This document shows positions 24,738-56,104 of a stretch of DNA of 64,000 bases, piece by piece (within the stretch, counting starts at the first letter, position 1; every line of letters begins with the position of its first letter). Origin of the DNA: Clostridia bacterium (lineage in GTDB: Bacteria > Bacillota > Clostridia > Monoglobales > Monoglobaceae); contig JAZNBG010000035.1 in the NCBI GenBank assembly GCA_045586925.1, forward strand, positions 6,417 through 70,416. The letters are read 5' to 3'. The notes under the pieces were generated by a model, which was not told the origin of the DNA, did not search any database, and saw nothing but the letters and a program-made list of their open reading frames with translations. The position numbers and the translations under genes were made by a program.

Positions 24738-24746
24738 GAGGAATAA

Positions 24747-25901: not shown

Positions 25902-26018
25902 TGATAGTCAGATGTGTGAAGTTTTTTGATTTGCATATACCAAGAGCTCAAAAAAACATAGACTTTAGATAAGATTGATGTTTAAGTGATTGAACTCTTC
26001 TTACAGGAGGGAATATAA

Positions 26019-29552: not shown

Positions 29553-29637
29553 ATATACAAATACAACAAATCATTGACAACTTCATTATATTATTTTAAA
29601 GCAGTGGTAGAATATATACATAAAGGAGTTGTCGAAT

Positions 29638-32569: not shown

Positions 32570-32589
32570 AAGAGGTGAAAAGACAGAAT

Positions 32590-35500: not shown

Positions 35501-37239
35501 TTGAAATCGCTGATGAAAAGGGATTAAGTGTAAAGCCTTTGTGGTTGGAGCCACTAAAGGAAACAATATATCTTACAGAATGTGTTGATAAGTTATACAC
35601 AGATTCTTTCGAAATTTGTTGGGATCAAGATTTAGATATCTCAACTACATTGGGAATCATCGATATAATTGAAACACAGAAACAGATACCTTTAAATATT
35701 TCATTGCCGCAGAGCGGACATATTGCTATTTATGGTTCTTCTGGAACTGGAAAGACTACATTGTTACAAACAATTATTTTCTCGCTGGCAACAAAATATT
35801 CACCGGAACTGTTAAACATTTTTGCTTTTGATTTTGGCGGACGCAATTTAGGGAATTTATCGCTTCTTCCGCATTGCGTTAACGTAGCTTTTGGCGATGA
35901 AGAGGACAAAATTTCATATATGTTTGAGCAGATACTTGAATGTATCGAATCAAGAAAAGTTTTGTTTGCAAAAAATAACTGCGCTACATATGAATCGTAT
36001 TTAGCAACAACAAAAAATAAACTTCCTGCAGTTCTTTTGGTGCTGGATAACTATGCTATATTCAGAGAAAAAATGTTCAAGAATGAAGATGATTTAGTTA
36101 GAATTGTTGCTAATGCAAAGGCGTACGGAATATATTTGATCGTTACAGGAAATAGCAAGAATGCAATTTATTACAAAGTTTCTGAACACATATCAAATAA
36201 TATTACTTTGCGTATGAATGATAAAATGAATTACCGTGATATATTAAATGTTTCTATACCTATTGAACCTGATAATATCAAAGGAAGAGGGTTGACAGTC
36301 TTTAATAAAAAAGCGGTAGAAATTCAGGCAGCACTTCCGTTGGAAGCAGAGAACGAGGCTGACAGAGCTGAAAAGCTGAACAAAATATACACTGCTATGT
36401 CACAGGCATATAACGGAACCAATGTGGCTAGTGTTTACTCTTCTTCAACTGAAAATAGTAAATCTAATATTTCAGAAGAAAATAGTACAATTAAAACATC
36501 TGTTATTTCAACAAGGAAAGTTCCGTCAACACTTCCTATTGTTAATGCTGATGATCATACAATTGTTTGTGGTTCTTCTGTTGTAAGCGGTCAGCTTCAA
36601 GGGTTTGAAATGCGTAATACTACAAATGTATTTATAGGTGTTAATGGTTCTGAATATCCAAATCGATTGCTTGAAAGAATTATTAATTTAAACAATGCTG
36701 CATTTTACGATATTTGCTCCTCATCATCGTTAGAAGGTGAATTTATTACATCGGTAAATACGGAATCTGAAATTCATGAAATGCTTCAAAATCTCGTTTA
36801 TGAAGTTAATGATCGAGAGAGTGAACTTCAAATGTTGCAGGCTGCGAATGTCGATGATTCTGAAGTATACGGATATATGCAAAAATATAAGAGGATTTTC
36901 TTGTTGATAAGAAGTTTCTCTAAGTTCTATGATGAGATAAGTGATGATGATTTAAAATTGTTGTTGACAATGTTGAAGAAGCAACGTCATCTAGGTATAT
37001 ATATTCTCACCATAGATGATATTGAAAGTATAGAACCATATTGTGATACAGCTTTATACATTGAATTAATAAAAACCGAAAAAGGCGTTGTTCTTGGTGG
37101 CAATATTAGTGATAAACAGGCGGCTCGATTGTGTAAACAATTCTCTGAAATACCTGTTGCAGAAAGAAACAAGAAACTGTCTGATAACAATGCATTTATG
37201 TATAATGATGCAAAATGGTCAGTAATTGAAATCAATTAA
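32590..37239 (+). CDS. essC: FHA-domain FtsK/SpoIIIE-family ATPase, EssC/EccC-like type VII secretion translocase
   Basis: FHA motif IGRAPESNIVI..SVSRKHAAI..TGVFLNGKRI, then two TM helices. P-loop 1 is GMTGSGKSE with VIDEF. P-loop 2 is GSSGTGKTT with LVLDNY. A third ATPase-like region lacks a P-loop lysine. ATG 32590 was chosen; GTG 32575 is an alternative. Confidence 0.85.
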   Translation: MGKYIAYFYIDNQLMQFDLDLLLNNCVDNYLGESILPVGSKQLFPIKTENKKYYLYGNFSNWKIVCNGSEVGEKVEISHGSYINFSSKKSSYSVLISETANFSIYNNCLEIQKNQNIFIGRAPESNIVIDINDSVSRKHAAIRLDASGNGFVEDLSRKTGVFLNGKRIVSSEIKCGDIIHIMGVSICFMGTFLVVPKNIVTNGMKEVKSFNVAQPTDKELEDTYARTPRILKSLDRNKIIIDAPTQPQKSKQQPFILVAGPSATMALGMMASFGVTLANALNGGNISSTITGGVMVISMLLGSLMWPSLLRNYTKRQEIANEKYRVEKYKYYLSEKEAEIRKSYERNCRIWNENLLPAPDKLSQIVFERGINLWERTFTDEDFLQVRLGIGAKLFETEIQHPNKGFTLHDDALIDEAINLANKYKMLENVPISVSLINQRTVGIVGESEKIHNTLRCMILNTVALHSPEDVKICVICNELQIEQVEWIKDLPHCWDSAKTTRYFATNNMEAQRLLNDMDEKIQEREELIDKDAIRTPHTIVVVLDEKVVENIPFYRYLIDSKNNVGISSIFIAEHFNRIPKECTAIIQNEKDICGIYTKNENDNRFVCFKSDEFKLTDAKKISQSMSEIPVKVEKTKLSVPNRVSFLDMYKVGNIENLSIEQKWANNMSDKTLAVPIGIKAGGELFCLDIHEKHHGCHGLVAGMTGSGKSEFLQAFILSALINFSPNEIAFVLVDFKGGDMARPFLKVPHLSATISNLSENILYRALISLEAEVKSRQKIFNEAASLLGIDKIDINSYHKYFKEGRLTLPLPHLVIVIDEFAQLKSQQPEFMAKLVEIAQVGRSLGIHLILATQKPSGVVDPQIWSNSRFKVCLKVLDKQDSTEMINRPDAALIKSPGRAYVQVGYDEIFEQLQSGYSGADYVEQKEYTDDEDVTIKLIDSAAMPIRSARSISGNLKSGKTQLEETINKIVEIADEKGLSVKPLWLEPLKETIYLTECVDKLYTDSFEICWDQDLDISTTLGIIDIIETQKQIPLNISLPQSGHIAIYGSSGTGKTTLLQTIIFSLATKYSPELLNIFAFDFGGRNLGNLSLLPHCVNVAFGDEEDKISYMFEQILECIESRKVLFAKNNCATYESYLATTKNKLPAVLLVLDNYAIFREKMFKNEDDLVRIVANAKAYGIYLIVTGNSKNAIYYKVSEHISNNITLRMNDKMNYRDILNVSIPIEPDNIKGRGLTVFNKKAVEIQAALPLEAENEADRAEKLNKIYTAMSQAYNGTNVASVYSSSTENSKSNISEENSTIKTSVISTRKVPSTLPIVNADDHTIVCGSSVVSGQLQGFEMRNTTNVFIGVNGSEYPNRLLERIINLNNAAFYDICSSSSLEGEFITSVNTESEIHEMLQNLVYEVNDRESELQMLQAANVDDSEVYGYMQKYKRIFLLIRSFSKFYDEISDDDLKLLLTMLKKQRHLGIYILTIDDIESIEPYCDTALYIELIKTEKGVVLGGNISDKQAARLCKQFSEIPVAERNKKLSDNNAFMYNDAKWSVIEIN

Positions 37240-37255
37240 ATAGGAGGTGTATAAT

Positions 37256-38044
37256 ATGAATTTTTCTGACAAATCTTTACATTTAACATATGATGAGTTT
37301 TATGCATTAATGTGTTTGTTAGGTGCAAAAAGTGTTCAAGGAACTTTTGTTGAAAATCATAATAATATATCTCCAAATGATTTCGAGAATATATGGGCAG
37401 TCTGCGAAAAATCACTGATTTCTAAAGGATATATGACATTAGACGGTGAGGATTTGCAGCTGGATATTAGTTTATATAGCATTATAACAGCATGTGTGAA
37501 TGCCGAAAGAAAATATAGTGTACAATTGTCAAAAGATAAATCCAATATTATTGATACAGTTTTTTATGATGGAAATAAGGCAATGGTATGTATCAATAAT
37601 TGTGATGAAAAGAAAGAGGTTTATTTAAGTTATTGCAATAAAAAGAAATCTTTTGATAATGTGGTTAAGGAAATTCCGGATATTACACAAAATATGCTTA
37701 ACGAAAAATCTGCTGAAATTACCCTTTCACAGCAGGAATATTTCACACTCATGTCTAGTGCTAATTTGGGGGACTATACCAAGGCTCGAAATCTATTCCC
37801 TGATGATATGGAAGAAGAATATTTAATGGATTTGATAAACACATTAAAAAATTCTTATGGGTTACTATCGGTTAATGAATTTGAAGATGAGGAAATTAGC
37901 ACTTACAGCATTTTATTTGGAAAAGAATCTTTATGGGCTATTTATGCACAGGATGAAGAAACAATATCCTTTAAATTGGTATCCAAAACTGATTTAGAAG
38001 ATAGCCTCGCGCAAACTTTTGGTTATGACGGAGGTGGCAAATAA
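37256..38044 (+). CDS. Soluble acidic protein of unknown function (possible EspG-like secretion chaperone)
   Basis: No TM segments. The N-terminal LTYDEFYALMCLLGAK loosely recalls the EspG N-terminus. Its position between the essC-like and yukD-like genes is suggestive. ATG 37256 follows AGGAGG. Confidence 0.25.
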   Translation: MNFSDKSLHLTYDEFYALMCLLGAKSVQGTFVENHNNISPNDFENIWAVCEKSLISKGYMTLDGEDLQLDISLYSIITACVNAERKYSVQLSKDKSNIIDTVFYDGNKAMVCINNCDEKKEVYLSYCNKKKSFDNVVKEIPDITQNMLNEKSAEITLSQQEYFTLMSSANLGDYTKARNLFPDDMEEEYLMDLINTLKNSYGLLSVNEFEDEEISTYSILFGKESLWAIYAQDEETISFKLVSKTDLEDSLAQTFGYDGGGK

Positions 38045-38045
38045 A

Positions 38046-38303
38046 ATGACTGAAAAAATTACGTTATCGGTATGTGTACTAGGAATTAATAAAAATTGTG
38101 ATTTTTCTGTTCCGACAAATATGTCAGTTAGAGAAGCAATTAAGTTAATGAAAAAGGTGATAACCGAAGAATATTGGGGTAACTCACCTATGCCAAAGAG
38201 CAGAATGAATTTGATGAAGTTGTCTGATCTTGAGGTATTAAATGATTCATTGAGTTTTGCCCAACTCGGTATTTCAAGTGGAGAAAGATTGATTTTTGTT
38301 TAA
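38046..38303 (+). CDS. YukD/EsaB-like ubiquitin-fold T7SS protein
   Basis: 85 aa. The pattern CDFSVPTNMSVREAIKLM ... LGISSGERLIFV parallels B. subtilis YukD (which ends CGITNGDRLEIL). ATG 38046 follows GGAGG. Confidence 0.65.
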   Translation: MTEKITLSVCVLGINKNCDFSVPTNMSVREAIKLMKKVITEEYWGNSPMPKSRMNLMKLSDLEVLNDSLSFAQLGISSGERLIFV

Positions 38304-38317
38304 GGAGTGTAAAAAAT

Positions 38318-38614
38318 ATGGCAACGTTTAGAATTAACTATTCAAGAGTTATTTCGCAAGCTAACTCTATGAATAATTTAAGTGGCGATCTTTCTTCTGA
38401 AATACGTAGGTTAGAAAATATGTTAAGCGAAGCTCGAAGTAATTGGAAAGGTCCAGCATCAGAAACATTTCAAAGACAATTAAGTAATTTAATAGGAGAT
38501 ATGAAGAACACAAAAAGTAAAATGTCAAGTGTTTCAAGTACAATTAAGAGTGTCGCAAGAAGGATACAAGCAGAAGATGAGCGAGCTGCTGAAAGAGCAA
38601 AAAAACTGAAATAA
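38318..38614 (+). CDS. WXG100-family protein (paralogue 1)
   Basis: 98-aa helical hairpin with a central W-K-G (SNWKGPASETF). Confidence 0.7.
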   Translation: MATFRINYSRVISQANSMNNLSGDLSSEIRRLENMLSEARSNWKGPASETFQRQLSNLIGDMKNTKSKMSSVSSTIKSVARRIQAEDERAAERAKKLK

Positions 38615-38632
38615 GAATTTGGAGGTGGAAAT

Positions 38633-38743
38633 ATGGAAGCTGCGGCTGCAACACCGATTAATTCAGTAGCAAGTACAGTGGTACCTATAGCGGTTGCTGT
38701 GCTTGTTGGAGTGGCAATTTTCGCTTTTTTAAGGCGAAAGTAA
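38633..38743 (+). CDS. 36-aa single-pass membrane peptide (not in the ORF track)
   Basis: ATG 38633 lies 6 nt after GGAGGTGG. It reads MEAAAATPINSVASTVVPIAVAVLVGVAIFAFLRRK: a hydrophobic helix followed by an RRK anchor. Confidence 0.5.
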   Translation: MEAAAATPINSVASTVVPIAVAVLVGVAIFAFLRRK

Positions 38744-38809
38744 AGATTAACTTAGGGTTATAAAATAATTATTATAACAAAATTATTTTTCGAAAGGAGC
38801 AAATTTATT

Positions 38810-39121
38810 ATGGCAAACGCATGGTCAGTAACCACAGAAAGACTTACATCTTCTGCAAACATTTTGGAGGAAAAAGTCGCAACGTACAATTCAGAATGGG
38901 GCAAACTTTACACAGAGGTTCAGAATTTAAAATCCTCACAGTGGCAGGGTATCGCAAGTGATGCATTCAACGCAAAACTTGAGTCCTACAAAAATGATTT
39001 TGAAGAATTAGCAAAAGTATTGAACAGCTATAAAGATTTCTTGAAATCAGCAGCAGAAAGATATGAGAAAACAGAAGAAGCAGTAAAAGATGCAGCTGGA
39101 AATCTTAATGCCGGAATATAA
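38810..39121 (+). CDS. WXG100-family protein (paralogue 2)
   Basis: 103 aa with central W-Q-G (SSQWQGIASDAF) and a C-terminal YEKTE (YxxxE) motif. Confidence 0.8.
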   Translation: MANAWSVTTERLTSSANILEEKVATYNSEWGKLYTEVQNLKSSQWQGIASDAFNAKLESYKNDFEELAKVLNSYKDFLKSAAERYEKTEEAVKDAAGNLNAGI

Positions 39122-39145
39122 ATAAAATTTTAGGAGGATTTTAAA

Positions 39146-39445
39146 ATGGCTACAATTAAAGTTGATTCAACAGTAATGAGAGACAAAGCAGGCACATTTA
39201 AGAATGTTGCTAACACAATAAAAAATTTAACAGATGAAATGACTCAGGAGATAGAAAGTTTACGTTCAGCATGGGAAGGCGAATCCGCTGAAGCAACTGT
39301 ATCAAAATTTAAAAGTTTAGCTTCAACATTTGAAGAAAAGTTCAATACAATTAACCAGTATGCATCTTTCCTTGAGGAAGCAGCTAATGCTTATGACGAT
39401 GCAGAAAAGGCTGTCGCTCAGGGAGCAGAAGGCACACAGGCTTAA
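39146..39445 (+). CDS. esxA: WXG100-family protein, EsxA-like (paralogue 3)
   Basis: 99 aa with central W-E-G (SAWEGESAEA) and a C-terminal YDDAE (YxxxE) motif. Strong AGGAGG RBS. Confidence 0.8.
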   Translation: MATIKVDSTVMRDKAGTFKNVANTIKNLTDEMTQEIESLRSAWEGESAEATVSKFKSLASTFEEKFNTINQYASFLEEAANAYDDAEKAVAQGAEGTQA

Positions 39446-39461
39446 TTTGAAGTTTGATAAA

Positions 39462-39506
39462 CACAGAGGCATATAAAATGCATATCTGAAATTATATGTC
39501 TCTGTG
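39462..39506 (+). promoter_or_regulatory. Intercistronic 15-bp stem-loop after the esxA-like gene
   Basis: CACAGAGGCATATAA / TTATATGTCTCTGTG (one G-U pair) with a 15-nt loop and no T-run. It is flanked by GAAGTTTGA direct repeats. Confidence 0.5.
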
Positions 39507-39531
39507 AAGTTTGAATTAAGGAGGTGTAAAG

Positions 39532-40791
39532 GTGCCTTACATAAAAGTTGACACAAGGAGATTATCCAACTTTGGAAATGTTGCATCTTCTACAAGAGGT
39601 AGAGTTGGTAATATAAAATCTTCATTTTCCTCTATTGGGAGTTCTCTTGATTGGGATGTAAAGGCTTGTTCTGGTATCAATAGGACAATAAGCCAAATTA
39701 ACAACGAACTTTCAGCAGAGATGTCGAGTTTAAGGAGAATTGAAACTTTTTTTGATTTGGCAGTTAGGAAATATAATGACGCCGAAAAATCCAAAGAAAA
39801 ACTATCAAAAATTCCTCAAACGAGAAGGGTAGCTACTCTTGGTCCAGGAGGTAGAATGAATAATACAACTAAAAATGTTGCATTATTATCTGTTTATAAA
39901 AATAACAAAGCCAGTATAACATCCCAGGTAAAAGTGAAAGAAAATTCCGAATGGACAAAACTTCTCAAGAAAATAGCAAAAAAAGCAGGTTTCGCTGGCT
40001 CCATTTACGGAATTTTAAGTGGAGAATCTGAAACCATTCAACATATAAAAGATGGAGAATATGCAAAAGCGATGCAGAGCTTTGCTGGAGTGGCGAAAGG
40101 TGTAATTAAAACTGTTCCAAAGATATTTGATAAATATGGAAAGATGAAAAAAGCATCCCATTTATTGACCCCTATGCAGAAATTAAAAAATTGGGGGAAA
40201 TCAATAGTTGGATTAGATGATATGATAAAAGCACCTTCAAAAGCTTCAAAAGTAACATCAAGAATCTATAATAATATGCAAAAGTTAGATATAAAAAAAC
40301 TTGGCAAGGTTACGAAGTGTGATGTTATTATAAGTAGCATTGTAAGTATTATTGGTAATGCCTCTGAATATATGGAAGGCAAGATAAGCGCTGCGAGAGC
40401 GGCAGCTGAAACCATTGGAGAAACTGTAATAGAAATTGGAAAAACCGCACTACTGTATAAAGTAGTTGGTGTTGCTGCAACTGCTGTAGCAAGTGCTGCA
40501 GGCATAGCTGCTGTTCCTGCAATTGCAGTAGCCGGTGCTGTAGTTGTGATTAGTTGGGGCATTGATAAGTTGACAGAAAAACTAACAGGAAAAAATTTCA
40601 CTGAATGGTTATCTGATGGAATAATTGATGTTGCTTCATACGTCGGCAAGTCAGTGAAACAGGTTGCAAATACTGTAGTTCCAGCAATTCGTAATACCTG
40701 TACCAATGTTATAAACAAGGCTGGTGAATTCTTCGGAAACGTAAAAAATGGCGTGAATAATTTCTTTGGAAAATTAAGATTTGCATTTTAA
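39532..40791 (+). CDS. Putative T7SS substrate: N-terminal WXG100/LXG-like helical domain fused to a C-terminal Gly/Ala-rich membrane-active region
   Basis: The N-terminal ~85 aa form a helical hairpin with the turn LDWDVKA and YNDAE (YxxxE). The C-terminus has AAETIGETV..LLYKVVGVAATAVASAAGIAAVPAIAVAGAVVVISWGI, a glycine-zipper-like hydrophobic hairpin. GTG start after AAGGAGG. Confidence 0.5.
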   Translation: MPYIKVDTRRLSNFGNVASSTRGRVGNIKSSFSSIGSSLDWDVKACSGINRTISQINNELSAEMSSLRRIETFFDLAVRKYNDAEKSKEKLSKIPQTRRVATLGPGGRMNNTTKNVALLSVYKNNKASITSQVKVKENSEWTKLLKKIAKKAGFAGSIYGILSGESETIQHIKDGEYAKAMQSFAGVAKGVIKTVPKIFDKYGKMKKASHLLTPMQKLKNWGKSIVGLDDMIKAPSKASKVTSRIYNNMQKLDIKKLGKVTKCDVIISSIVSIIGNASEYMEGKISAARAAAETIGETVIEIGKTALLYKVVGVAATAVASAAGIAAVPAIAVAGAVVVISWGIDKLTEKLTGKNFTEWLSDGIIDVASYVGKSVKQVANTVVPAIRNTCTNVINKAGEFFGNVKNGVNNFFGKLRFAF

Positions 40792-40809
40792 AAAAAGGAG
40801 TGAATTTAA

Positions 40810-41079
40810 ATGATTAAAGATTTATTGCCGGTTGGTAGTGTAGTTTTACTTAAAGGTGGCATAAAAAAGTTAGTTATTATGGGGATTAAGCAGGCTAACG
40901 CTGAAGAACCTGATGTTGAATATGACTATGCAGGAGTAATGTATCCAGAAGGATATTTGGGAAATGATACCCTTTACCTTTTTAACCACGCTGATATAAA
41001 TGATATTATTTTTACTGGATATACCAATCCTGAACGTGATGAGTTTTTATTAGAAGTAGAAAAATTATACAATGATTAA
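40810..41079 (+). CDS. DUF4176-like small protein (family commonly encoded in Firmicute T7SS loci)
   Basis: The opening LLPVGSVVLLKGGIKKLVIMG and the size (89 aa) fit DUF4176 as I recall it. Confidence 0.55.
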   Translation: MIKDLLPVGSVVLLKGGIKKLVIMGIKQANAEEPDVEYDYAGVMYPEGYLGNDTLYLFNHADINDIIFTGYTNPERDEFLLEVEKLYND

Positions 41080-41863
41080 TGCAGTTGCTTTTTCAAATGT
41101 TGGGAATATCAGGAGTAACCACGAAGACAATTATTTACTTGGCGTTGGCAACCACATTGACGAAGTGATACAGAGGCAAATGAGAAATAATCTCTACATG
41201 CAGAAATCCACCTATACGGGTGATGCAGGTGTATTTGCAGTTTGTGATGGTATGGGTGGACATGCTTCTGGAGAGGTTGCAAGTTATGCAGCTATTTGCT
41301 GGTTAAACAATAAAGCTAATTTATTGCTGAATTCTCAACCTACAGAAATAATCAGTTGCATAACAGAATTGAATTCACATATATGTAATGAAGCTGATAA
41401 ATCCTCATGTTGTAACAACATGGGAAGTACTTTAAGTGCAATGATAATCAATGGCAGAAGTATTCATACCATTAATGCCGGAGATAGCCGTATATATTCC
41501 TTTAAAAATGATAAATTATCACAGATAACTACAGACCACACTGAGGGACAGCGATTATTGGACCTTGGATTACTTACAATGAATGAGTTGCCAGAATTTT
41601 CGTCACGAAAATCGTTATATAAGTACTTGGGACGAAAGGGAGAATTGATAGCTGATGTAGTAGATATTAGTGGTAGTGATGGGTTGTATATGATCTGCAG
41701 TGACGGCCTTACGGATGCACTTAATGATTGCGAAATTGAGGGAATATTTTTAAAACGTGATTCAATTTCGGATATCGGACAAGAGCTAATGGATTCTGCT
41801 TTAGCGAAAGGAAATTTATGTGCTGATAATGTGACGTTATTATTAGTTGAAATATCTTACTGA
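41072..41863 (+). CDS. PP2C-family Ser/Thr protein phosphatase
   Basis: AVCDGMGGHASGEVAS, GDSRIY and ICSDGLTD metal-binding motifs. Overlaps the upstream gene by 8 nt. Confidence 0.85.
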   Translation: MINAVAFSNVGNIRSNHEDNYLLGVGNHIDEVIQRQMRNNLYMQKSTYTGDAGVFAVCDGMGGHASGEVASYAAICWLNNKANLLLNSQPTEIISCITELNSHICNEADKSSCCNNMGSTLSAMIINGRSIHTINAGDSRIYSFKNDKLSQITTDHTEGQRLLDLGLLTMNELPEFSSRKSLYKYLGRKGELIADVVDISGSDGLYMICSDGLTDALNDCEIEGIFLKRDSISDIGQELMDSALAKGNLCADNVTLLLVEISY

Positions 41864-43653
41864 TGAAAGAAGGGATAAATTTGATAGGAAAAACCATTTT
41901 AGGTTATACCATTGAGGAAGAAATTGGTTCGGGTGGTTTTGGAACAGTTTATAAGGCTTATAAAAGGGACGAATCCGGAACATTTATTAGAGCAATTAAA
42001 CATATATCCCTTCCTACAAAAAAACAATACAACGATGTACTAAATTCAATGGGTGGAGATTATGCTAAGGCAGATAACTATTTCAATGATATATTGAACG
42101 ATCTCGTCAGCGAAATAAAGATATTATATAATCTTACAGAGCAAGGAGTTCTAAACGTTGTAAGATATACTGATCACCACATTGAGAAACAACAGAACCC
42201 TATCAAATATGATATATACCTTTCTATGGAATATCTAACACCATTTGACGAATATATCCAAACAAGCAAACTTGCGGTTAGGGATGTTATAAAATTAGGA
42301 AAGGATATTTCAGCTGCACTTATCGCTTGCCATAAGAATACCATTATGCATCGAGATATTAAAGATGAAAACATCTTTGTATCTAACGATGGCACATATA
42401 AATTAGGAGATTTTGGGGTTTCAAAAAAAATGCAAGACAGCTCAAGGGCTGAAAGTATGAAAGGTACACCTAATTATATCGCACCTGAAGTGTATTTAGG
42501 AAAAGGCAAATATGATTGCACTGTCGATATATACTCATTGGGGATTGTATTATACAAGCTTCTCAACTATAATCGTAATCCGTTTTTGCCTGAATATCCG
42601 TTGGAATACAATAGTGTAGATGAAGATAAAGCTTTTGAAATGCGTATGAAAGGAGATACGCCTCCTGCTCCGCTTAATGCAAACAATAAACTTGGCGAAG
42701 TAATTTTGAAAGCTATAAGCATTAGAGAAAATCGCTATAACGATGCAGCCGAGCTATATGAATGCTTAAATGAAATCGAAAAAAGCTTAACAAACGAGGA
42801 ACTTAATAAGGTTGTTATATCTCCAATAAAGAATATTGTTGATAAAAAGCCTGAACCTACACCACAGATTCAGAGTGACAAAAATTTAAAAGAAACTATT
42901 GGTGAAGATTATAATGTAACCAATCAGGAAGAAAAAGAGACAGGAAATGGCGCTCTTTTTGAAACTCATGGAGATGATTATACTCCTCCGGTAATAAAAA
43001 GAGAAGAGTCCCAAACAGAATCTATAGTAACAAAGGACGAAGAAGCAGAAGATTGCATAGAAGATGTTGAACAGGAAAAGCCATTAGTGAAAACAAAAAC
43101 AAGAAAGAAAACTTTGCTATATGTCGGCATGGTTTTGGCTGTATTTGTAGCATTGCTTGGATTTAAAATAGCAAACAATATAATGTCAAAAGATAATTGG
43201 ACCGGATTTAGTCATGTATATAATGTTACTGCTGAAGGAAAATATGCAGACGGAAAAAGCGAAGATGAAACAGGAGAAAAATTTGAAATAGATTCAGAGA
43301 CAATTAAAATGGCTTTGGAAGATAATATTCCTAAAAAATTGCCATTAGATCAAGAATATAACTTTGAATTTACAATATATTCACCTGATATGCCAGAGAG
43401 CATAATGGTTTTAGCCGGTAAAGGTGGCGGATATGTTAATTTCGAATATATATCTTGTGCAGAGGAAACAAGCAAGGCATATATAAAATTTCCGTGGGAG
43501 TTTCAAAGTAACCTTAATGGAGAAACTCTGTATTCCCCAGGAGAGAAAATTAGATTTAGAATTGTGGTAGAATACAGAACGAAAAACGATGATGGTTCTA
43601 CTCGTTATGAGAAAATCTATCTTGATAAAACAGCTTTAACATTAACAAAATAA
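41863..43653 (+). CDS. Hanks-type Ser/Thr protein kinase 1 (single TM, extracytoplasmic C-terminal domain)
   Basis: GSGGFGTVYKA, AIKHI, HRDIKDENIF, GDFGVS and YIAPEV. TM segment LLYVGMVLAVFVALLGF. TGATG overlap with the phosphatase gene. Confidence 0.9.
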   Translation: MKEGINLIGKTILGYTIEEEIGSGGFGTVYKAYKRDESGTFIRAIKHISLPTKKQYNDVLNSMGGDYAKADNYFNDILNDLVSEIKILYNLTEQGVLNVVRYTDHHIEKQQNPIKYDIYLSMEYLTPFDEYIQTSKLAVRDVIKLGKDISAALIACHKNTIMHRDIKDENIFVSNDGTYKLGDFGVSKKMQDSSRAESMKGTPNYIAPEVYLGKGKYDCTVDIYSLGIVLYKLLNYNRNPFLPEYPLEYNSVDEDKAFEMRMKGDTPPAPLNANNKLGEVILKAISIRENRYNDAAELYECLNEIEKSLTNEELNKVVISPIKNIVDKKPEPTPQIQSDKNLKETIGEDYNVTNQEEKETGNGALFETHGDDYTPPVIKREESQTESIVTKDEEAEDCIEDVEQEKPLVKTKTRKKTLLYVGMVLAVFVALLGFKIANNIMSKDNWTGFSHVYNVTAEGKYADGKSEDETGEKFEIDSETIKMALEDNIPKKLPLDQEYNFEFTIYSPDMPESIMVLAGKGGGYVNFEYISCAEETSKAYIKFPWEFQSNLNGETLYSPGEKIRFRIVVEYRTKNDDGSTRYEKIYLDKTALTLTK

Positions 43654-43698
43654 AAGCAATATGTTGATAATTTTGAAATTAAGAAAGAAGGGATAAAG

Positions 43699-45585
43699 TT
43701 GATAGGACAAACAATTTTGGGATATACAATCGAAGAAGAAATAGGTTCAGGTGGCTTTGGCACAGTATATAAAGCGAGAAAAAGTAACCAATCAGGAACT
43801 TATGTGCGTGCAATTAAACATATATCCCTTCCTACAAAAAAACAATACAATGATGTTTTGAACTCAATGGGTGGAGATTATTCGAAGGCGGACGATTATT
43901 TTTCGGATATCCTAAAAGATATTGTTGGAGAAATTCAAATATTAAATAACCTTACTGAACAAGGTGTTCGTAACGTTGTTTGGTATTATGAAAATCAAAT
44001 AGATGAGTGCCAATCTCCACTAAGGTATGACATATATATTTTAATGGAATATCTAACCCCGTTTGATGAATACATACAAGTAAATGAATTTACGGTGAGA
44101 GATGTAATAAAACTAGGTAAAGATATTGCAACAGCACTTGTTGCTTGTCATAAAAATAATGTTATACATCGTGATATTAAAGATGAAAATATATTTGTTG
44201 CAAACGACGGAACATATAAATTAGGTGATTTTGGAGTATCAAAGAAACTTCAAGACCGTTCCCGGGCTGAAAGTATGAAAGGTACACCAAATTACATTGC
44301 ACCAGAGGTATATTTGGGTAGAGGAACCTACGATAATACTGTAGATATATATTCACTTGGGATAGTGTTATATAAATTACTTAATTATAATCGTAATCCA
44401 TTTATGCCTAAATATCCTGAACCATTCAACAGCAATGATGAAGATGTTGCCTTTGAAAACAGAATGAAGGAATTAACACCAGAACTTCCTCAAAATGCTG
44501 AAAACAGTCTTGGTAACATCATTTTGAAGGCTATTGGAAAGCGTGATGAACGTTATGATTCAGCAACAGATTTTTTAGATATTCTTATGGAAACTGAAAA
44601 AAGCTTAACAAACGAGGAATTGAACAAGGTTATAATCACACCTGTAGCAAACGATAAACAGCAAACAGCAGGAACAGTGAATAAAGAAAGTAATATTCCT
44701 CTGAAAGAAACAATTGGTGAGAATTATGAGGTTACGTCAAATGTTGTTAAGGGACAAGGAAATGGGAATCTTTTTGAAACTCAAGGCGAAAAATATGTTC
44801 CACCAGTATTGCCGGATGAGCCAAAAAGGATAATTCATGAAGCAAAAGCGGAGCCTCCTAAAATAGAAACACCCAAAGAAGAAAAATATGAATATGATTA
44901 TGCTCCAAAAGGTCCTCGTACTGCACCACCAGAAGAACCGCATGTTGAACCTATTCAAAAAGGAAGTTTTGATTGGTTATTATATGCTACACCTTTTGTG
45001 ATTTTATTGGTATATATCGTATTGTTTTTCGTGTTACTACCAAAAGCTTATGATAACACAGTATCATTTATAGATTGGGCAATTAAAAATCCGCAGGATT
45101 TGCTTGAAGCGATGAAATCGTCTGATAATGTATTGCCGCCAATATATAAGGTTATTTTCCTTAAATTATTAAATATAGCGTTGTTTTCAGGGTTGGTTAT
45201 ATCGTTATATTTCATCGGAAGAAAACTTCATTTTTCTAAACCAAATTATGCATCCAATGCAACATTGATAGACAAAGAAGCTTACTATTTGTCCTTGGAA
45301 ATATACGAAGAATTAAAGGCTGAATCTATACCCAATACGTCAGATATTATATCTTCTGTAAAAGTAGTACATGACAGATTGAAAAATGATAGCTCTTTTG
45401 GTATAGGAAATCAAAGTGTGATTCGTTGCGAACAGGAAATTGAGTCACTATTAAGAGTTGTTCAGTCAAATATTGCAGGTTTGAAAAATGATAGTACATT
45501 TTCTGGCTCAAAACAGACTATACTAACTTCCTGCAACAGAATAATGGCAAAAATCAAAATGAGAACAGAGTTAAAAAAGAGATAA
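43699..45585 (+). CDS. Hanks-type Ser/Thr protein kinase 2 (paralogue; different multi-TM C-terminal half)
   Basis: The kinase domain is nearly colinear with kinase 1 (same G-loop, HRDIKDENIF, DFG, APE). The C-terminus has two or more TM segments and a distinct tail. TTG start within a duplicated GAAAGAAGGGATAAA leader. Confidence 0.9.
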   Translation: MIGQTILGYTIEEEIGSGGFGTVYKARKSNQSGTYVRAIKHISLPTKKQYNDVLNSMGGDYSKADDYFSDILKDIVGEIQILNNLTEQGVRNVVWYYENQIDECQSPLRYDIYILMEYLTPFDEYIQVNEFTVRDVIKLGKDIATALVACHKNNVIHRDIKDENIFVANDGTYKLGDFGVSKKLQDRSRAESMKGTPNYIAPEVYLGRGTYDNTVDIYSLGIVLYKLLNYNRNPFMPKYPEPFNSNDEDVAFENRMKELTPELPQNAENSLGNIILKAIGKRDERYDSATDFLDILMETEKSLTNEELNKVIITPVANDKQQTAGTVNKESNIPLKETIGENYEVTSNVVKGQGNGNLFETQGEKYVPPVLPDEPKRIIHEAKAEPPKIETPKEEKYEYDYAPKGPRTAPPEEPHVEPIQKGSFDWLLYATPFVILLVYIVLFFVLLPKAYDNTVSFIDWAIKNPQDLLEAMKSSDNVLPPIYKVIFLKLLNIALFSGLVISLYFIGRKLHFSKPNYASNATLIDKEAYYLSLEIYEELKAESIPNTSDIISSVKVVHDRLKNDSSFGIGNQSVIRCEQEIESLLRVVQSNIAGLKNDSTFSGSKQTILTSCNRIMAKIKMRTELKKR

Positions 45586-51294: not shown

Positions 51295-51316
51295 TAAAAA
51301 AGAGAGGAGAATATGT

Positions 51317-51556
51317 ATGAATCTTATAGTTGCAATCGGAGGAGTAATTTTAAGTCTGATAATAAATTTCTTACCTACTATAATTGCTTTTGTAAAAGGA
51401 AGTTATAAAAAAATTAATGTTTTATTATTAAATGGCATTCCATATGCTTTGTCTGTTGTGTTGATTTTTATTTCGATCCCTGTACTGAACCCAATAATTG
51501 CTTTAATAAATATTGTTTCATGGGTTGCAGCTTTAATAATGGCTTTGAAAAATTAG
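51317..51556 (+). CDS. Small membrane protein, superinfection-immunity (Imm, PF14373-like) family
   Basis: FLPTIIAFVKGSYKKINVLLLN ... VSWVAALIMAL fits the pattern of that family as I recall it. Confidence 0.5.
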   Translation: MNLIVAIGGVILSLIINFLPTIIAFVKGSYKKINVLLLNGIPYALSVVLIFISIPVLNPIIALINIVSWVAALIMALKN

Positions 51557-51662
51557 AGGTTTTTTATACATAAGAACAATAAAAGAATATTATTTTAAAA
51601 AATTAATAAAAAAAACAACTCCACCTATTGTAAAGATAAAAATGATGTGTTAAAATATGCTT

Positions 51663-51850
51663 GTAAAAACTCATGATGAGTTTCAGGTAAGAAGATTACA
51701 CAGGTAAGAAGTTAAGCAGGTTTAAGATGTTACTCAAAGGGACAAGTCTGCCCTTTTGCAGAAAACGCACCTGTGATTGTCATAAGTGGAAACAAAAAGA
51801 AAGCAAACGCAAGTAATGAACCTACGGGGGATTTCGGTGTTTGCTTTTAT
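51663..51850 (+). ncRNA. Candidate small RNA unit 1 (own promoter and terminator)
   Basis: Promoter TTGTAA (51628-51633), 17 nt, TGtTAAAAT (hexamer 51651-51656). The body has GGTAAGAAG twice plus TTAAGCAGGT, then the GGGACAAGTCTGCCC motif with a T-run (51739-51757). The second hairpin is AAGCAAAC/GTTTGCTT with a T-run ending at ~51850. Confidence 0.3.
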
Positions 51851-51972
51851 TTTATCAAGTAGTAGAAAATAAAAATGCTTCGAGTATAGAAAAAACATTG
51901 AAAAAGTGAAACGATATGTTTATTTTCCCTCCAGGTATTGTAAATCAGGAAATAATAATGTAAAATGTACTT

Positions 51973-52056
51973 GTAAAAATGGTAAGCAGTTACACGGGTA
52001 AGCAGTTAAGCAGGTTAGCATAAAAATTGTTGGCGGGATAAGTCTGTCCGTTTTTA
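51973..52056 (+). ncRNA. Candidate small RNA unit 2 (paralogue of unit 1)
   Basis: Promoter TTGTAA (51938-51943), 17 nt, TAAAAT (51961-51966). The body has GGTAAGCAG twice plus TTAAGCAGGT, then GGGATAAGTCTGTCC followed by T5. Confidence 0.3.
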
Positions 52057-52674
52057 GCTATCTGCTTTAATGGAAAGTGTGAAAAGCATTATCCAATTTT
52101 ACGGAGATTAAAATTATATAGGCGGTAACAAAGAATGTAGAAACTATCCTATGGGATAAGACTGCATTCTTTTTGTTTTTAGAAGATAGATTTATCGGTT
52201 AGGAATAAAAGTTTTTATGAAGTCCTATACGGCACTTTTTACACTGTCTTGTAAAAGGATGTACGGACACAAAGATGTTTTGGTTGGAGAAACAAAAATG
52301 CAGAGTTTGCCATCGGATTTGTACGCATAGACTTTAAAAAATCCGTAGAGGTTGGACAGAACCTTGACATAGTAGCGGCTGTGAAAATATTAAATTACAT
52401 ATGTCACCGCTATGACATATTTCAGCATCGGCATAAATATATGCACCTGAGTTTAGCAGGGATGCTACCGCAGGAGAGTTTCTCCAACTACCTTTTGCGG
52501 GAATATTACTAACCGAGCAATATGCTTTAGATAAAATGGAGACAGGAACAAAGAAAACGTCTCAAAATACTGCAAATACTGGGTTTCTCACACAGTCATA
52601 CCGGGAAACACAGAGGTAACGAGGTGAAATTCCAACGGGATAGGTATGCCCTATGCTGAGGAAAGGACATTACA

Positions 52675-53535
52675 ATGTGTAAAAACATATACAAGAACTT
52701 GGAAATACAGTACAAGAAATTATTCCGCCATTTAAAGGTCGGAAGTTTCAAAACAAGAGAACGTTACGGAAAGGCGTTTAAGCGATTCATGGTATTTTTG
52801 GCAAGAGAATATCATTTGCAAAAGTTGGCAAACATTTCAGAAAAGCATATATACGCTTATGTAAGCTATATGCAAAATAAAGGTTTGTCTGCCTCAACAA
52901 TAAAGACCGAGCTTGCGGCAATACGATTTTTCCACGACAGTATGCCGTACACAAGAAGCACCTTGCCGACAAATGATGAACTCGAACTTGAAAAACGTAA
53001 TTTCGGCGGAGTTGACAGAACTTGGTCCGAAATAGAGTTTGCAAAAATGCTTGCAGCATCAGTGATGGGAGAATATCCGGAGTATTCGGGAATGCTTTAC
53101 CTTGGAAGATATGCCGGACTTCGTTTGGAAGAATGTTTCCGCATTGACACCAACGATGCTAAAAATGCTCTTGAAACGGGACAGCTACTGGTTAAAGGCA
53201 AAGGTGGACTCACAAGGTATGTACCGATTTGCTATCAACTTGAGATTGTATTTCGTGATATGTTAAAGATTACACCTATCGGACAAAAGCTATTTGTAAG
53301 ACCGTATGACAAGACACATCTTGCAATGAAGCGTTTGCAAAATTTTATTGCATACCACAGAAAAGAGTTTACTGAAAACAGAATTACCTTTCATGGACTT
53401 CGACATACATATGCTCACGAACAGTATGAGAAGTTCATAAAAGAAGGTTGTTCGGAATTTGATGCCCGAAAAAAGGTATCGGAGCTGCTCGGTCATCATC
53501 GTGATGATGTAACGAGAATATATTTAGCCGAATAA
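52675..53535 (+). CDS. Tyrosine recombinase/integrase
   Basis: SAM-like N-terminal domain (HIYAYVSYMQNKGLSASTIKTELAAIRFF). GLRLEE (Arg), HGLRHTYA (His-x-x-Arg) and LGHHRDDVTRIYL (His, Tyr). Confidence 0.8.
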   Translation: MCKNIYKNLEIQYKKLFRHLKVGSFKTRERYGKAFKRFMVFLAREYHLQKLANISEKHIYAYVSYMQNKGLSASTIKTELAAIRFFHDSMPYTRSTLPTNDELELEKRNFGGVDRTWSEIEFAKMLAASVMGEYPEYSGMLYLGRYAGLRLEECFRIDTNDAKNALETGQLLVKGKGGLTRYVPICYQLEIVFRDMLKITPIGQKLFVRPYDKTHLAMKRLQNFIAYHRKEFTENRITFHGLRHTYAHEQYEKFIKEGCSEFDARKKVSELLGHHRDDVTRIYLAE

Positions 53536-53582
53536 AAATTTGAATATTTGGAAATTATTAGATATAGCGAAAGGAGCTTTGT

Positions 53583-53789
53583 ATGATAAGTACTTCTGAT
53601 ATCGATAATTTCGTAGATTTGAAAAATTTGGCTATTGATAAAACAAAACCAATTGAGGAGCGGCTAAAGCAATTTATCACGGATGTAAAAAATCCGTATA
53701 TGGTAAGAGTTGGCGATACACTGGTACGAATAGAATTTACCGGTGGAAGAAACTTTTCAGATGCTTTAACTGCAGCTTTCGGTGCATAA
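53583..53789 (+). CDS. 68-aa protein of unknown function immediately upstream of the large serine recombinase (possible directionality or accessory factor)
   Basis: AAAGGAG RBS. The suggested role rests on position only. Confidence 0.3.
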   Translation: MISTSDIDNFVDLKNLAIDKTKPIEERLKQFITDVKNPYMVRVGDTLVRIEFTGGRNFSDALTAAFGA

Positions 53790-53813
53790 GTGGAAATTTC
53801 ATAATATTTCCTC

Positions 53814-53842
53814 TTGAAGTTTAGGCGGCGGTATGATATAAT
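53814..53842 (+). promoter_or_regulatory. Sigma-A-like promoter of the large serine recombinase gene
   Basis: TTGAAG (53814-53819), 17 nt, TGaTATAAT (hexamer 53837-53842). Confidence 0.45.
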
Positions 53843-53897
53843 TTTTAATGTAGAGATTAGCATATCGCCGTCAAAATAAAAGACGGAGGTACGCGAT

Positions 53898-55580
53898 ATG
53901 ACAAATACAAAATATGCGATGTACTTAGAGCAGCCTCCAGTATTTAAAATACAGTGGAGAGCTGCTCTTTATATAAGACTTTCAAAAGAAGATGGCGACA
54001 AAGGAGAAAGTAACTCTGTAACATCGCAGAGAGAAATATTAAAAGAATTCTTAAAGCTTCGCCCTGACATTGAACTCTATGACATTTATGTAGATGATGG
54101 TTGGTCGGGTACAAACTTTGACAGACCTGATTTTACACGAATGATGGAAGATATTTATTCCGGCAATGTAAATTGTGTTATAGTAAAGGATTTATCGAGA
54201 TTCGGAAGAAACTATACTGATAGCGGAAATTATCTTGACAATGTGTTTGTGAGGCTCAGAGTTCGTTTTATTGCACTTAATAACGGTGTTGATACCGCAT
54301 CAAACAATATGAACGCTGCAACACAGTGTATTTCTGTAGGTGTTACTAATGTTATCAACGAAAGTGTTGCCGCAACAACTTCGGTGAATGTTCGCGGAAC
54401 ACTGAATGTAAACCGTGCTCAAGGTAAATTTATAGGTTCTTTTCCAACATACGGATATTTAAAAGATCCTAATGACCATCATAAACTTATTGTTGATGAA
54501 GAAGTTGCGCCTGTTATTCGGTCAATATTTGAACGATTTGTTGCAGGTAAAAGTATAATCGGCATTGCAAAGGAACTAAACGAAGAAGGTATTCCTAATC
54601 CTTCAATGTATAAGAAACTTAAAGGTTTTAATTATAGACATCCCGTAGGAAAAAGCAATGACGGATTATGGCCGGACAGTTCTGTGCGAAGAATACTGCG
54701 AAATGAAATGTATATCGGCAATATGGTGCAAGGTAAAAATACAACAATAAGTTATAAGATTAAGCAATGCAGGCCAATTCCTAAAGAGGATTGGATTATT
54801 GTTGAAAACACTCACGAGGCTATTGTAAGTAAAGAGATATTTGAAAAAGCACAGTCTCTTTTCAACAAAAACATACGAGTCGCACCACAGAAAAAAGAAG
54901 TAGATTTATTTTCTGGTTTTGTTCGCTGTGCTGATTGTCATAGAACTATGAATAAGAAAACCAATGTCCATTCTTATGCAACATATCATTATTATCGTTG
55001 TTCTACTGCAAGAAAGATGAAAAAAAGTGCTTGTGGTAATCATACGATAAGAATTGATAAGCTGGAAGAAGCGGTATTAGTTGTTATTCAGAACATGGTT
55101 GATGTGGCAATTGAAATGGATGATATTCTAAAGAGAATCAATTCCAATGGTGAAAGAAAAAAAGAATCCAAACATCTTAAAAAGGCAATCGAAACACAAA
55201 CTGCTGAAAGGGATAAATGCAAACGAATGATGGTTGATTTGTATCCTGACTGGAAGAATGGCATTATTACTCAAGAGGAATATTTAATGTTAAAGCAGGG
55301 TATTTCAGAAAAAATAGAAACTCTTGATAAAATGATAGAAAATCTCACCGAAACAGCAAGAAGTTACGAGGAAGGAGTAAATGATGAAAATGAATTTATA
55401 GCCCATTTCAAGGCTCATGGCAAAATAAAAGCTTTAACCCGAAATCTTCTGCTTGAGTTGGTTGACGAGATTTTAGTTCACGAGGGCGGAGATATTACCG
55501 TGAAATTCAAGTTTAACGATGCCTATAAAGAAGTTATGGAATATATTGAAATGAATAAGGATGTTATTAAGACTGCTTAA
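53898..55580 (+). CDS. Large serine recombinase (SpoIVCA/SprA/phage-integrase type)
   Basis: 560 aa. Resolvase catalytic domain (AALYIRLSKEDGDKGESNSVTSQ, VKDLSRFGRN), a recombinase domain, a zinc-ribbon (CADCHRTM...YYRCST..ACGNH) and a coiled-coil tail. It lies 130 bp from the right junction. Confidence 0.9.
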   Translation: MTNTKYAMYLEQPPVFKIQWRAALYIRLSKEDGDKGESNSVTSQREILKEFLKLRPDIELYDIYVDDGWSGTNFDRPDFTRMMEDIYSGNVNCVIVKDLSRFGRNYTDSGNYLDNVFVRLRVRFIALNNGVDTASNNMNAATQCISVGVTNVINESVAATTSVNVRGTLNVNRAQGKFIGSFPTYGYLKDPNDHHKLIVDEEVAPVIRSIFERFVAGKSIIGIAKELNEEGIPNPSMYKKLKGFNYRHPVGKSNDGLWPDSSVRRILRNEMYIGNMVQGKNTTISYKIKQCRPIPKEDWIIVENTHEAIVSKEIFEKAQSLFNKNIRVAPQKKEVDLFSGFVRCADCHRTMNKKTNVHSYATYHYYRCSTARKMKKSACGNHTIRIDKLEEAVLVVIQNMVDVAIEMDDILKRINSNGERKKESKHLKKAIETQTAERDKCKRMMVDLYPDWKNGIITQEEYLMLKQGISEKIETLDKMIENLTETARSYEEGVNDENEFIAHFKAHGKIKALTRNLLLELVDEILVHEGGDITVKFKFNDAYKEVMEYIEMNKDVIKTA

Positions 55581-55618: not shown

Positions 55619-55711
55619 TTACTTTGTGAATTTTCACATAAAAACACACGTAGAATTATAGAAAACAAACAAAAATAAAAAATTTATGGTGTACCCTTGA
55701 CATTTTCCCCT

Positions 55712-56104
55712 GCGGCGGCAGATACCTTGGCAGCGCATTTTAAAGACACGGGCAGACAACCTGACTTTTATGACCTGATTTTATCGGGTGATTTAGGAAT
55801 TGTGGGCAAGGCGGCATTAATTGACCTGATGTACGAAAAAGGATACAGAATATCAAGTAATTATGACGATTGCGGTTGTATGATTTTTGACATAGACAAT
55901 CAGGATATGCATGCTGGCGGTTCGGGTTGCGGGTGTCTGGCGGTAACGTTGTGCGGATATATTATGGATATTATTAAGGCGGGAAAACTGAAAAACGTGC
56001 TTTTTATGGGGACGGGAGCATTACTCAGTCCCACATCAACGCTGCAAGGCGGAACAATTCCATCGGTGGCACACGCGGTGGCAATTACTGCAGAGAGGGG
56101 GTAG
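55712..56104 (+). pseudogene. spoVAD: spoVAD 3' segment (codons 209-338 of the split gene)
   Basis: From AAADTLAAHFKDTGRQPDFYDLILSGDL onward it matches the SpoVAD C-terminal half (GGSGCGCLAV, TGALLSPT). There is no RBS or plausible own start. It is in frame with the 5' segment if 19142 is joined to 55712. Confidence 0.9.

Follow-up and report, generated by a model that had tools for sequence, protein, structure and literature searches.

A window of 64,000 nucleotides (nt) from a Clostridia bacterium (contig JAZNBG010000035.1, positions 6,417 to 70,416 of the forward strand) was analysed, and all coordinates given below without a locus name refer to this whole stretch. The sporulation gene spoVAD is interrupted in it by an island of about 36.5 kb (about 19.17–55.69 kb), with residues 1–207 encoded at 18519–19166 and residues 201–328 at 55697–56104, and the island is a skin-type element intervening in a sporulation gene. 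Near its right end, a stretch without open reading frames (ORFs; 51557–52674) contains two paralogous units, followed rightward and on the + strand throughout by the gene of an Xer-like tyrosine recombinase of 286 amino acids (52675–53535) and by that of a large serine recombinase (53898–55580), which adjoins the 3′ part of spoVAD at the right island junction. Comparison of domains and homologues showed that the catalytic residues of the tyrosine recombinase are conserved and that it consists of a SAM-like core-binding and a catalytic domain only, the arm-binding domain being absent. The two units, which are the subject of this work, very probably belong to one family with the architecture of a leader, found ahead of homologues of this recombinase and also ahead of unrelated operons.

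The two units of the window

The units are located on the + strand at about 51628–51860 and 51938–52181, and their alignment showed 75% identity. The order of elements is the same in both: extended −10 promoter, GTAAAAA exactly 6 nt past the −10 box, two copies of GGTAAG(A/C)AG 16–17 nt apart, TTAAGCAGG, and hairpins or terminators. All elements of the tandem paralogous layout given in a preliminary description of this DNA were found at their places. The promoter of unit 1 (51628–51656) is composed of a −35 box TTGTAA (51628–33), a 17-nt spacer, a TG dinucleotide (51648–49) and a −10 box TAAAAT (51651–56). It is followed by CTTGTAAAAA (51660–51669) and by a 5′ region (51663–51721) which opens with the a-box GTAAAAA (51663–69), the transcription start being predicted at about 51662–64. 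A 16-nt insertion before the first repeat contains the near-palindrome CTCATGATGAG (51670–51680), a small hairpin, and is missing from the otherwise 89% identical copy of locus L001. Repeats R1 (51686–94) and R2 (51703–11) both read GGTAAGAAG and are followed by R3, TTAAGCAGGT (51712–21). An internal hairpin (51736–51775) with the stem AAAGGG/CCCTTT (51736–41/51751–56) carries GGGACAAGTCTGCCC (51739–51753, T-run next) and is closed by a weak outer pairing of GCAGGT (51716–21) with ACCTGT (51769–74); it is a degenerate form of the canonical P1 hairpin described below. Unit 1 ends in a terminator (51794–51858) consisting of the long hairpin AAAAAGAAAGCAAAC/GTTTGCTTTTATTTT and a T-run.

In unit 2 the promoter (51938–51966) has the same boxes, TTGTAA (51938–43) and TAAAAT (51961–66), again separated by 17 nt. 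After CTTGTAAAAA (51970–51979), the 5′ region (51973–52015) contains the a-box GTAAAAATG, with the start predicted at about 51972–74, R1 (51981–89) and R2 (51997–52005), both GGTAAGCAG, and R3, TTAAGCAGGT (52006–15). P1 is here a long hairpin (52008–52067) in which AAGCAGGTTAGC (52008–19) pairs with GCTATCTGCTT (52057–67), enclosing a smaller hairpin (52032–52048) together with its T-run; this inner hairpin carries GGGATAAGTCTGTCC (52035–52049, T-run next). Further downstream are found the a′ box CCAATTTTAC, the complement of the 5′ a-box, with the conserved GGAGA after it (52093–52107; canonical form CATTTTTACGGAAAAC), and a terminator designated T2 (52130–52181), formed by AAAGAATGTAG (52130–40) and CTGCATTCTTT (52162–72) and followed by TTGTTTTT. 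The apex of T2 reads CTATCC-TATG-GGATAAG (52144–60).

The preliminary description was also borne out in that both 9-mers of a unit share the same variant base (GGTAAGAAG twice in unit 1, GGTAAGCAG twice in unit 2), and in that the last motif occurs a third time, as GGGATAAGACTGCAT, near 52153 (52153–52167). This motif, GGGAYAAGTCTGYCC with a T-run, had been described as following the repeats in each unit; it is the apical part of hairpins and not a free-standing terminator signal. A further suggestion, that CTTGTAAAAA recurs near 27.8 kb as part of a regulatory vocabulary shared across the island, held only for the occurrence itself (27822–31): no repeats follow it and no profile match was obtained there, so the occurrence is best read as chance.

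The motif GGTAAGMAG occurs in the 64-kb window at the four sites of the two units only; 0.82 sites are expected from shuffled sequences, and four were reached in 1 of 100 shuffles. The units are not a product of chance, the strongest argument being their conservation: a profile built from the promoter and the repeats yielded 45 distinct copies in other genomes and in metagenomes. When folding was compared with that of shuffled sequences, z was −5.1 for a canonical leader, −3.5 for unit 2 and −1.8, a marginal value, for unit 1, the R1 and R2 repeats of which were predicted to be unpaired. Matches of at least 12 nt to the units, complementary or direct, were limited in the rest of the window to AT-rich ones attributable to chance.

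A conserved family of leader cassettes

The profile of promoter and repeats was run on related loci and on metagenome stretches. All copies found are oriented with the downstream gene, on the transcribed strand. The −10 box is TAnAAT in all 45 copies, preceded by TG in 39 of them; the spacer measures 17 bp in 31 of 41 copies, and the a-box begins exactly 6 nt past the −10 box in 44 of 45. From this spacing, transcription of the window units is predicted to start near 51663 and 51973, in agreement with the starts proposed in the preliminary description. In most copies a CTCC block follows a T- or A-rich run about 5 nt 5′ of the −35 box (51619–51627 and 51929–51937 in the window); this conserved block is untranscribed DNA and could be an activator site or an UP-type element.

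The canonical order is promoter, GTAAAAATG, R1, R2, an AAGCAGG...CCTGCTT hairpin with a T-run, CATTTTTACGGAAAAC, a second strong terminator, a ribosome-binding site (RBS) and the gene. The P1 stem, which starts from the third AAGCAGG, pairs over 9–14 bp in each of 19 distinct sequence versions, and its distal part varies (GUAC/GUAC, UAAAG/CUUUA, AAAAAG/CUUUUU, UUAGC/GCUA and G-U variants, the last on the sense strand only). A T-run of at least three residues begins no more than 2 nt after P1 in 15 of the 19 versions, and after GTTA in one more. Since the distal part varies while pairing is kept, since the G-U variants are sense-only and since T-runs follow, P1 is regarded as an RNA structure and, in canonical copies, as an intrinsic terminator (T1). 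R3 is kept for pairing and not for sequence, as seen in locus L062, where GAGCGGG still pairs. The apical part of P1 carries CC-UAYG-GGAUAGGU, which is the last motif of the preliminary description and is seen again in the apex of the window's T2 (52144–60). Between the 5′ GUAAAAAUG and CAUUUUUAC, located 3′ of the terminator, there is complementarity, and this helix was chosen by RNAalifold.

The repeats differ between cassettes, the variants including GGTAAGCAG, GGTTGTNG, GGGCGGAG, GGTTGTNGTTAA (L019), GGTT(A)CAGTTAA (L021) and, ahead of a recombinase with 51% identity, AGGGCGGAGTAAA twice (L047), and both repeats of any one unit agree with each other. In L011 and L015, 35 nt stand between R1 and R2 and include GGTC-TTT-GACC; such insertions, like the one in unit 1 of the window, are compact and include short palindromes, for which a constraint at the RNA level is a better fit than a fixed spacing in DNA. 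At the repeat block, reassortment of promoter types with body types is seen in L002, L010, L011 and L014. A unit of L010 (4265–4320 of that locus) has three repeats with mixed spacers, AAAAT and then AAAAC, in which we see the footprint, as judged from the sequence, of a staggered or unequal crossover between neighbouring units. Unit bodies are poorly conserved relative to the promoter-proximal block. Small proteins encoded in the bodies were considered, GGGAGAACTATGCCC resembling an RBS with ATG, and were discarded: CTG stands in its place in the window copies, and comparison of L002 with L008 shows a broken frame.

More than 1,700 homologues of the recombinase were found, the best 120 of them with 65–96% identity. 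A scan of one genome per species, with alignment of the recombinase, gave 54 loci. Among the close ones (at least 65% identity and at least 1 kb of upstream DNA), 15 of 17 carry one to four units by the profile, on the recombinase strand and at most about 1.7 kb from the recombinase gene; the divergent unit of L019 was recognised by eye. In L001, the block corresponding to 51596–53523 is about 90% identical and both flanks are unrelated, and the same left boundary was observed in L006 and L018. T2 is kept in 22 of 22 loci tested, 500–690 nt upstream of the start codon, and inspection of the alignments by eye revealed no conserved promoter in the interval from T2 to the structured leader of the recombinase gene. 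Downstream of the recombinase gene, and on its strand, nearly all loci have a small gene, for an HTH_17 protein or another product, with the integrase gene of the element, of the tyrosine or large serine type, after it. Many recombinase-bearing contigs (L003–L005, L009, L012, L013 and L015) begin inside or just 5′ of the region of units and leader. Such contig starts would fit assembly breaks at repeated cassettes, and unit counts from draft assemblies are therefore lower bounds. In the GC-rich L047 (4440–5260 of that locus), four promoter-driven short structured units lie upstream of an xerDC RNA: one has AGGGCGGAGTAAA twice, and three of another type start with T(T/A)CTTATTAGATT and contain TTAAGCAG or CTAAGCAG; none of the four matched an Rfam family.

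When metagenome contigs were scanned for the exact pattern of the two repeats, 19 stretches were obtained, 15 of which match the unit profile at E ≤ 1e-9. Within the DNA retrieved, none of the 19 contains a recombinase homologue; two of them, from one 25.6-kb contig, cover about 21 kb. L067 gave no profile match, and the matches of L060, L065, L073 and L076 are weak and partial; upon inspection, L060 and L067 were found to be runs of short G/A-rich repeats and were rejected as units. Two types of operon follow the cassette in these contigs. The first encodes a 150-amino-acid protein like sigma-70 region 4, a JAB-domain protein, ThiF and a DUF6094 methyltransferase; the second encodes an SNF2-type helicase. 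In L062 (3581–5510 of that stretch) the SNF2 helicase gene is split by a group II intron, with a reverse transcriptase/maturase ORF and an Rfam Intron_gpII match. Ahead of these unrelated operons the cassette is complete, with T1, a′, T2 and then an RBS, and three metagenome contigs have two leaders each. Membership of the window units in the family, the promoter architecture, the hairpin and terminator structures and these genomic associations are direct observations.

The cassette was absent from Rfam and from the phage and plasmid collections and the literature searched. A covariance-model scan of the whole window against Rfam 15 gave no match to the units at gathering score, and only noise was obtained at E up to 10 in 51300–52800 and in a canonical copy (L063, 1650–1960). 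The 1.1-kb intergenic region has no similarity in phage and plasmid collections, pattern scans together with a protein scan detected neither a unit nor a close recombinase relative in viral contigs, and the full-text literature searched contains no description of the repeat sequence or of an RNA tied to this recombinase. The gene content of the carriers points to integrative, probably conjugative, elements and not to phages, and by these scans the module is not phage-borne. A likeness to integrons was also noted, GTTAAGC resembling GTTRRRY and an NCBIfam integron model scoring 43.5 bits versus a cut-off of 265 bits; the idea of an integron attI site with cassettes was set aside, as the units occur without the recombinase.

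The structured leader of the recombinase gene and the island

The xerDC RNA motif (Rfam RF03062) is a candidate cis-regulatory RNA located upstream of Xer-like recombinase genes in Clostridia. Between T2 and the recombinase gene of the window, a structured leader (52215–52674, +) with many covarying helices ends in the RBS GAGGAAAGGA. For this leader of about 460 nt, RNAalifold on 16 loci predicted 79 pairs, 28 of which are changed on both sides, and hairpin insertions of variable length occur in the leaders of L003, L012 and L017. Its core (52400–52514, +) aligned with the full RF03062 model at 37.3 bits (E 8.4e-5) versus a gathering score of 72.5 bits, and the homologous region of L047 passes with 73.1 bits. 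The gene context is that of the motif, upstream of an Xer-like tyrosine recombinase gene in Clostridia, and on sequence and context the leader is taken to be a divergent member or a close relative of xerDC RNA. Two loops, UAGCGG (about 52376–81) and CCGCUA (52410–15), are complementary to each other, and those of L022, CGGCGA/UCGCCG, are complementary again, which suggests a kissing-loop contact. The preliminary description had missed this context, that is, the conserved T2, the covarying xerDC-type leader and the recombinase–integrase operon fed by the units.

RNAalifold also paired the U-run of T2, UUCUUUUU (52162–52174), with GAAAGGA of the RBS (52660–52668) in 16 of 16 loci. Both sides are nearly invariant, and in this model the pairing may lock translation of read-through transcripts. 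The leader segment GAUGCUACCGC was also considered as a partner of the repeats, to which it is nearly complementary in the window and exactly so in L028; this pairing was rejected, since L019 and L021 gave no covariation and the segment already lies within covarying intramolecular helices.

The gap between the two recombinase genes is occupied by an ORF of 101 amino acids (53558–53863, −), antisense to the recombinase–integrase direction, whose product has 62–89% identity in L006, L007 and L018 and no family match. This ORF leaves 35 bp for a promoter of the integrase gene, which is therefore probably reached by read-through. In L006 (Congzhengia sp.) the right flank of the related element is similar to the same part of spoVAD.

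Leftward of the units lies cargo, consisting of genes for a YidD fusion and for a small membrane protein; farther left are genes of beta-lactamase-fold proteins, Ser/Thr kinases, type VII secretion and defence. In the spans 21242–27585 and 31433–45585 this cargo includes an N6 methylase with a specificity subunit (restriction-modification), a KwaB-like protein, an SPFH/zinc-ribbon protein, type VII secretion components (an EssC-like FtsK ATPase with FHA, WXG100, DUF4176), a PP2C phosphatase and two Ser/Thr kinases. The spans 28234–28908 and 29629–30477 of the island hold a second, unrelated small tyrosine recombinase (282 amino acids) and a small serine resolvase; neither a unit nor an xerDC-like leader lies ahead of either gene.

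Proposed attenuation, rival readings and known systems

The units are read here as conserved promoter-plus-5′-leader attenuator cassettes, a reading which, taken as a whole, we consider evenly balanced between right and wrong. According to it, a housekeeping-type extended −10 promoter would initiate about 7 nt past the −10 box, near 51663 and 51973, and the RNA would begin with GUAAAAAUG, continue with two GGUAAG(A/C)AG repeats 16–17 nt apart and enter, with the third AAGCAGG as its 5′ strand, a long hairpin. This hairpin would in canonical copies be followed by a U-run (T1), and then by CAUUUUUAC, the second terminator T2 and the operon. By default the output would be a short terminated RNA. 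A putative factor, most likely an RNA-binding protein or a modifier of RNA polymerase, would bind the tandem repeats, and its binding, spreading to R3, would open P1 or bypass the terminator, resulting in read-through. As the P1 of unit 2 has no U-run, T2 (52130–81) is considered the effective terminator of this unit; unit 2 together with T2 (51938–52181) would be the working leader of an operon comprising the xerDC-type RNA, the tyrosine recombinase and the serine integrase, and unit 1 an additional upstream copy with its own terminator. Stacks of units would form by recombination in the shared 45-nt promoter-proximal block, which would also account for the variant base common to both repeats of a unit, because recombination in this block would keep the two repeats alike.

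The sequences have the arrangement of an attenuator: a promoter and then, between the start and the gene and on the sense strand, a hairpin with a U-run; in the window, T2 and the terminator of unit 1 are clear. No RNA-only antiterminator was found in the cassette. Recognition of the repeats at the RNA level is modestly favoured over recognition in DNA, because insertions are tolerated and R3 is kept for pairing.

Several points weigh against this reading. The window copies are degenerate, with TAATGG in place of a U-run after the P1 of unit 2, and in unit 1 there is no clear a′, P1 is weak and the fold is barely better than that of shuffled sequences. The a:a′ helix is invariant on both sides and hence has no support from covariation, and the B- and C-type units of L002, L008 and L014 have no AAGCAGG third copy. 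Start sites and termination are predictions from sequence, as are transcription itself, attenuation and the nature of the putative repeat-binding factor; the sequences would be compatible with an action in DNA as well as in RNA. Lastly, an extra promoter before each terminator is an odd arrangement for tighter control and leaves room for a role in trans.

If the action is in DNA, the repeats (about +20 to +50) and the upstream CTCC would be an operator, at which a regulator of the element or of the host represses the whole family by roadblock or activates it, the short RNAs being incidental. This explanation is tenable, though we think it unlikely. It would account for a conserved block of which part, between about −50 and +45, is untranscribed DNA, for two repeats that are identical in each unit and stand at a fixed distance from the promoter, and for a cassette that heads several operons in the manner of a regulon; GCAGTTAAG, moreover, may resemble the half-sites of LytTR-type regulators. 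The period of 16–17 bp, however, would set successive sites on opposite faces of the helix, and the rest of the cassette is intact despite the 35-nt insertions between R1 and R2 (L011_4867, L015_379) and the 16-nt insertion before R1 (window, L006). An operator would likewise not explain a third copy kept for pairing, such as GAGCGGG in L062, and no candidate regulator co-occurs in the stretches retrieved.

The role in trans would be that of small RNA (sRNA) genes of about 90–210 nt, whose repeats and apical motif titrate an RNA-binding protein or pair with targets, for instance in the control of excision or transfer. We regard this as distinctly unlikely. Each unit does have its own predicted promoter and terminator and no ORF, and reading frames are not conserved between the bodies of L002 and L008; gene-free stacks of two to four units recur in many loci, and the four short structured units stacked before the xerDC RNA of L047, each with a promoter, fall into two sequence types. 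Directly ahead of coding operons, on the other hand, the cassette is plainly a leader in cis, a complementary target of at least 12 nt beyond chance is lacking in the window, and the bodies, in comparison with the promoter-proximal block, are poorly conserved. The preliminary description is supported as far as paralogous units, each with a promoter and a short structured RNA with a recognition-like repeated motif, are concerned; its link to the recombinase is not.

That description had also suggested iterons or arm-type sites for the adjacent tyrosine recombinase. In this case the repeats would be accessory (arm-type or TnpI-like) or crossover sites of the enzyme, which would itself shuffle the units, and the data agree in so far as nearly all close relatives have units ahead of the recombinase gene, the block 51596–53523 travels between unrelated elements, promoters and bodies reassort exactly at the repeats, and unit number differs among close relatives. 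Against it, the recombinase has no arm-binding domain, and the cassette also heads other operons, where up to 21 kb of the surrounding contig contained no recombinase homologue. The repeats are direct and separated by 7–8 bp, not inverted around a 6–8-bp spacer as in a core site, and their variants do not track the divergence of the recombinase: L025 and L026 (69–70% identity) keep GGTAAGCAG and L019 (75%) does not. In addition, the difference between the units of the window and of L006 does not stop at the repeats, and about 45 bp of identity suffices for homologous recombination or slippage. A recombination site is for these reasons very improbable.

Still less credit is given to a reading in which stacked units would be sRNA genes cooperating with the xerDC-type RNA and the Xer-like recombinase, so that RNA directs or licenses tyrosine recombination. 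The 5′ repeats would then be a handle and the variable bodies the specificity part. The movement of 51596–53523 as one piece, the varying number and type of units and the L047 stack speak for it; to our knowledge, such a role of RNA is so far known only for IS110-type recombinases. RNA-assisted tyrosine recombination would be important if true.

The least probable explanation is a leader peptide, in which the 5′-proximal AUG of canonical copies opens a four-codon ORF (AUG GUA AGC AGU UAA; MVSS) whose translation controls the terminator: AUGG is retained in most a-boxes and the second repeat also begins with AUG where the spacer ends in T, but a Shine-Dalgarno sequence is absent, L017, L008_1001 and L047 have no AUG, unit 1 of the window has another frame and peptide (MMSFR), and pairing with the CAU of the a′ box explains the conservation of AUG equally well. 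A type III toxin–antitoxin RNA of the ToxI kind was rejected, since there are only two or three repeats of 9–12 nt versus an array of repeats of about 36 nt, and the downstream gene encodes a recombinase and not an endoribonuclease toxin, other copies preceding other operons.

The occurrence of one cassette at the head of several operons in gut clostridial integrative elements points to one shared control, which would include the operon for integration and excision. As the island splits spoVAD, control of the recombinase–integrase operon may bear on whether this gene can be restored by the host. The poorly understood xerDC RNA gains a transcriptional setting, consisting of tandem, predictedly regulated promoters, a conserved terminator, a larger leader and a fixed place before the integrase gene, and the cassette is a simple sequence signature by which such elements and their operons can be located in metagenomes.

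With regard to the xerDC RNA, 52400–52514 aligns over the whole model with the same helices and has the same gene context. The units fall outside the model, 330–770 nt upstream, and the conserved structure here measures about 460 nt versus 126 positions, with extra covarying helices and complementary hairpin loops. TnpI-type resolution sites (Tn4430, Tn5401) have accessory direct repeats, and lambda-type integrases have arm-type sites. What the cassette shares with these systems is the presence of direct repeats that overlap a promoter region ahead of the gene of a small tyrosine recombinase; in contrast to them, it has no adjacent inverted-repeat core site and is also found without the recombinase, the recombinase has no arm-binding domain, and the conserved unit includes strand-specific RNA hairpins and terminators.

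The multimeric RNA-binding proteins TRAP (trp leader), HutP (hut) and PyrR switch termination by means of tandem RNA repeats. The cassette resembles their targets in having short, regularly spaced repeats 5′ of a terminator, the last of them inside the terminator stem. It differs in that it has, instead of many triplets, just two or three repeats of 9–12 nt, and in that its RNA-binding protein is putative.

Leader attenuators and RNA antiterminators are used by conjugative elements, so that the leader-attenuator reading has precedent (PMC11658703, PMC13401043). Plasmid pLS20 has a zipper-type attenuator, cATT, followed by the conAn antitermination system (PMC13401043), and in Tn916 an antiterminator RNA of 452 nt, canT, acts in cis and is located beside int (PMC11658703). 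By analogy, the leader RNAs of Gram-positive conjugative elements are considered the closest functional analogues. No sequence similarity to the pLS20 and Tn916 leaders was detected, and tandem direct repeats are not mentioned for pLS20 (PMC13401043). The a′ box of the cassette, unlike the corresponding part of a zipper, does not overlap T2: the distance from its end to the T2 hairpin is about 27 nt in the window and about 35 nt in canonical copies, and its only overlap is with the U-run of T1, so that stem extension alone would not stop termination. canT lies downstream of int, whereas the cassette leader lies upstream. Common to all of them are a long untranslated leader heading a mobile-element operon, a long imperfect hairpin between complementary sequences, internal terminators and a position beside integration and excision genes. 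The cassette is accordingly placed among the promoter-proximal leaders or attenuators of mobile elements, a known kind in which it forms a new family with an unusual tandem-repeat recognition element.

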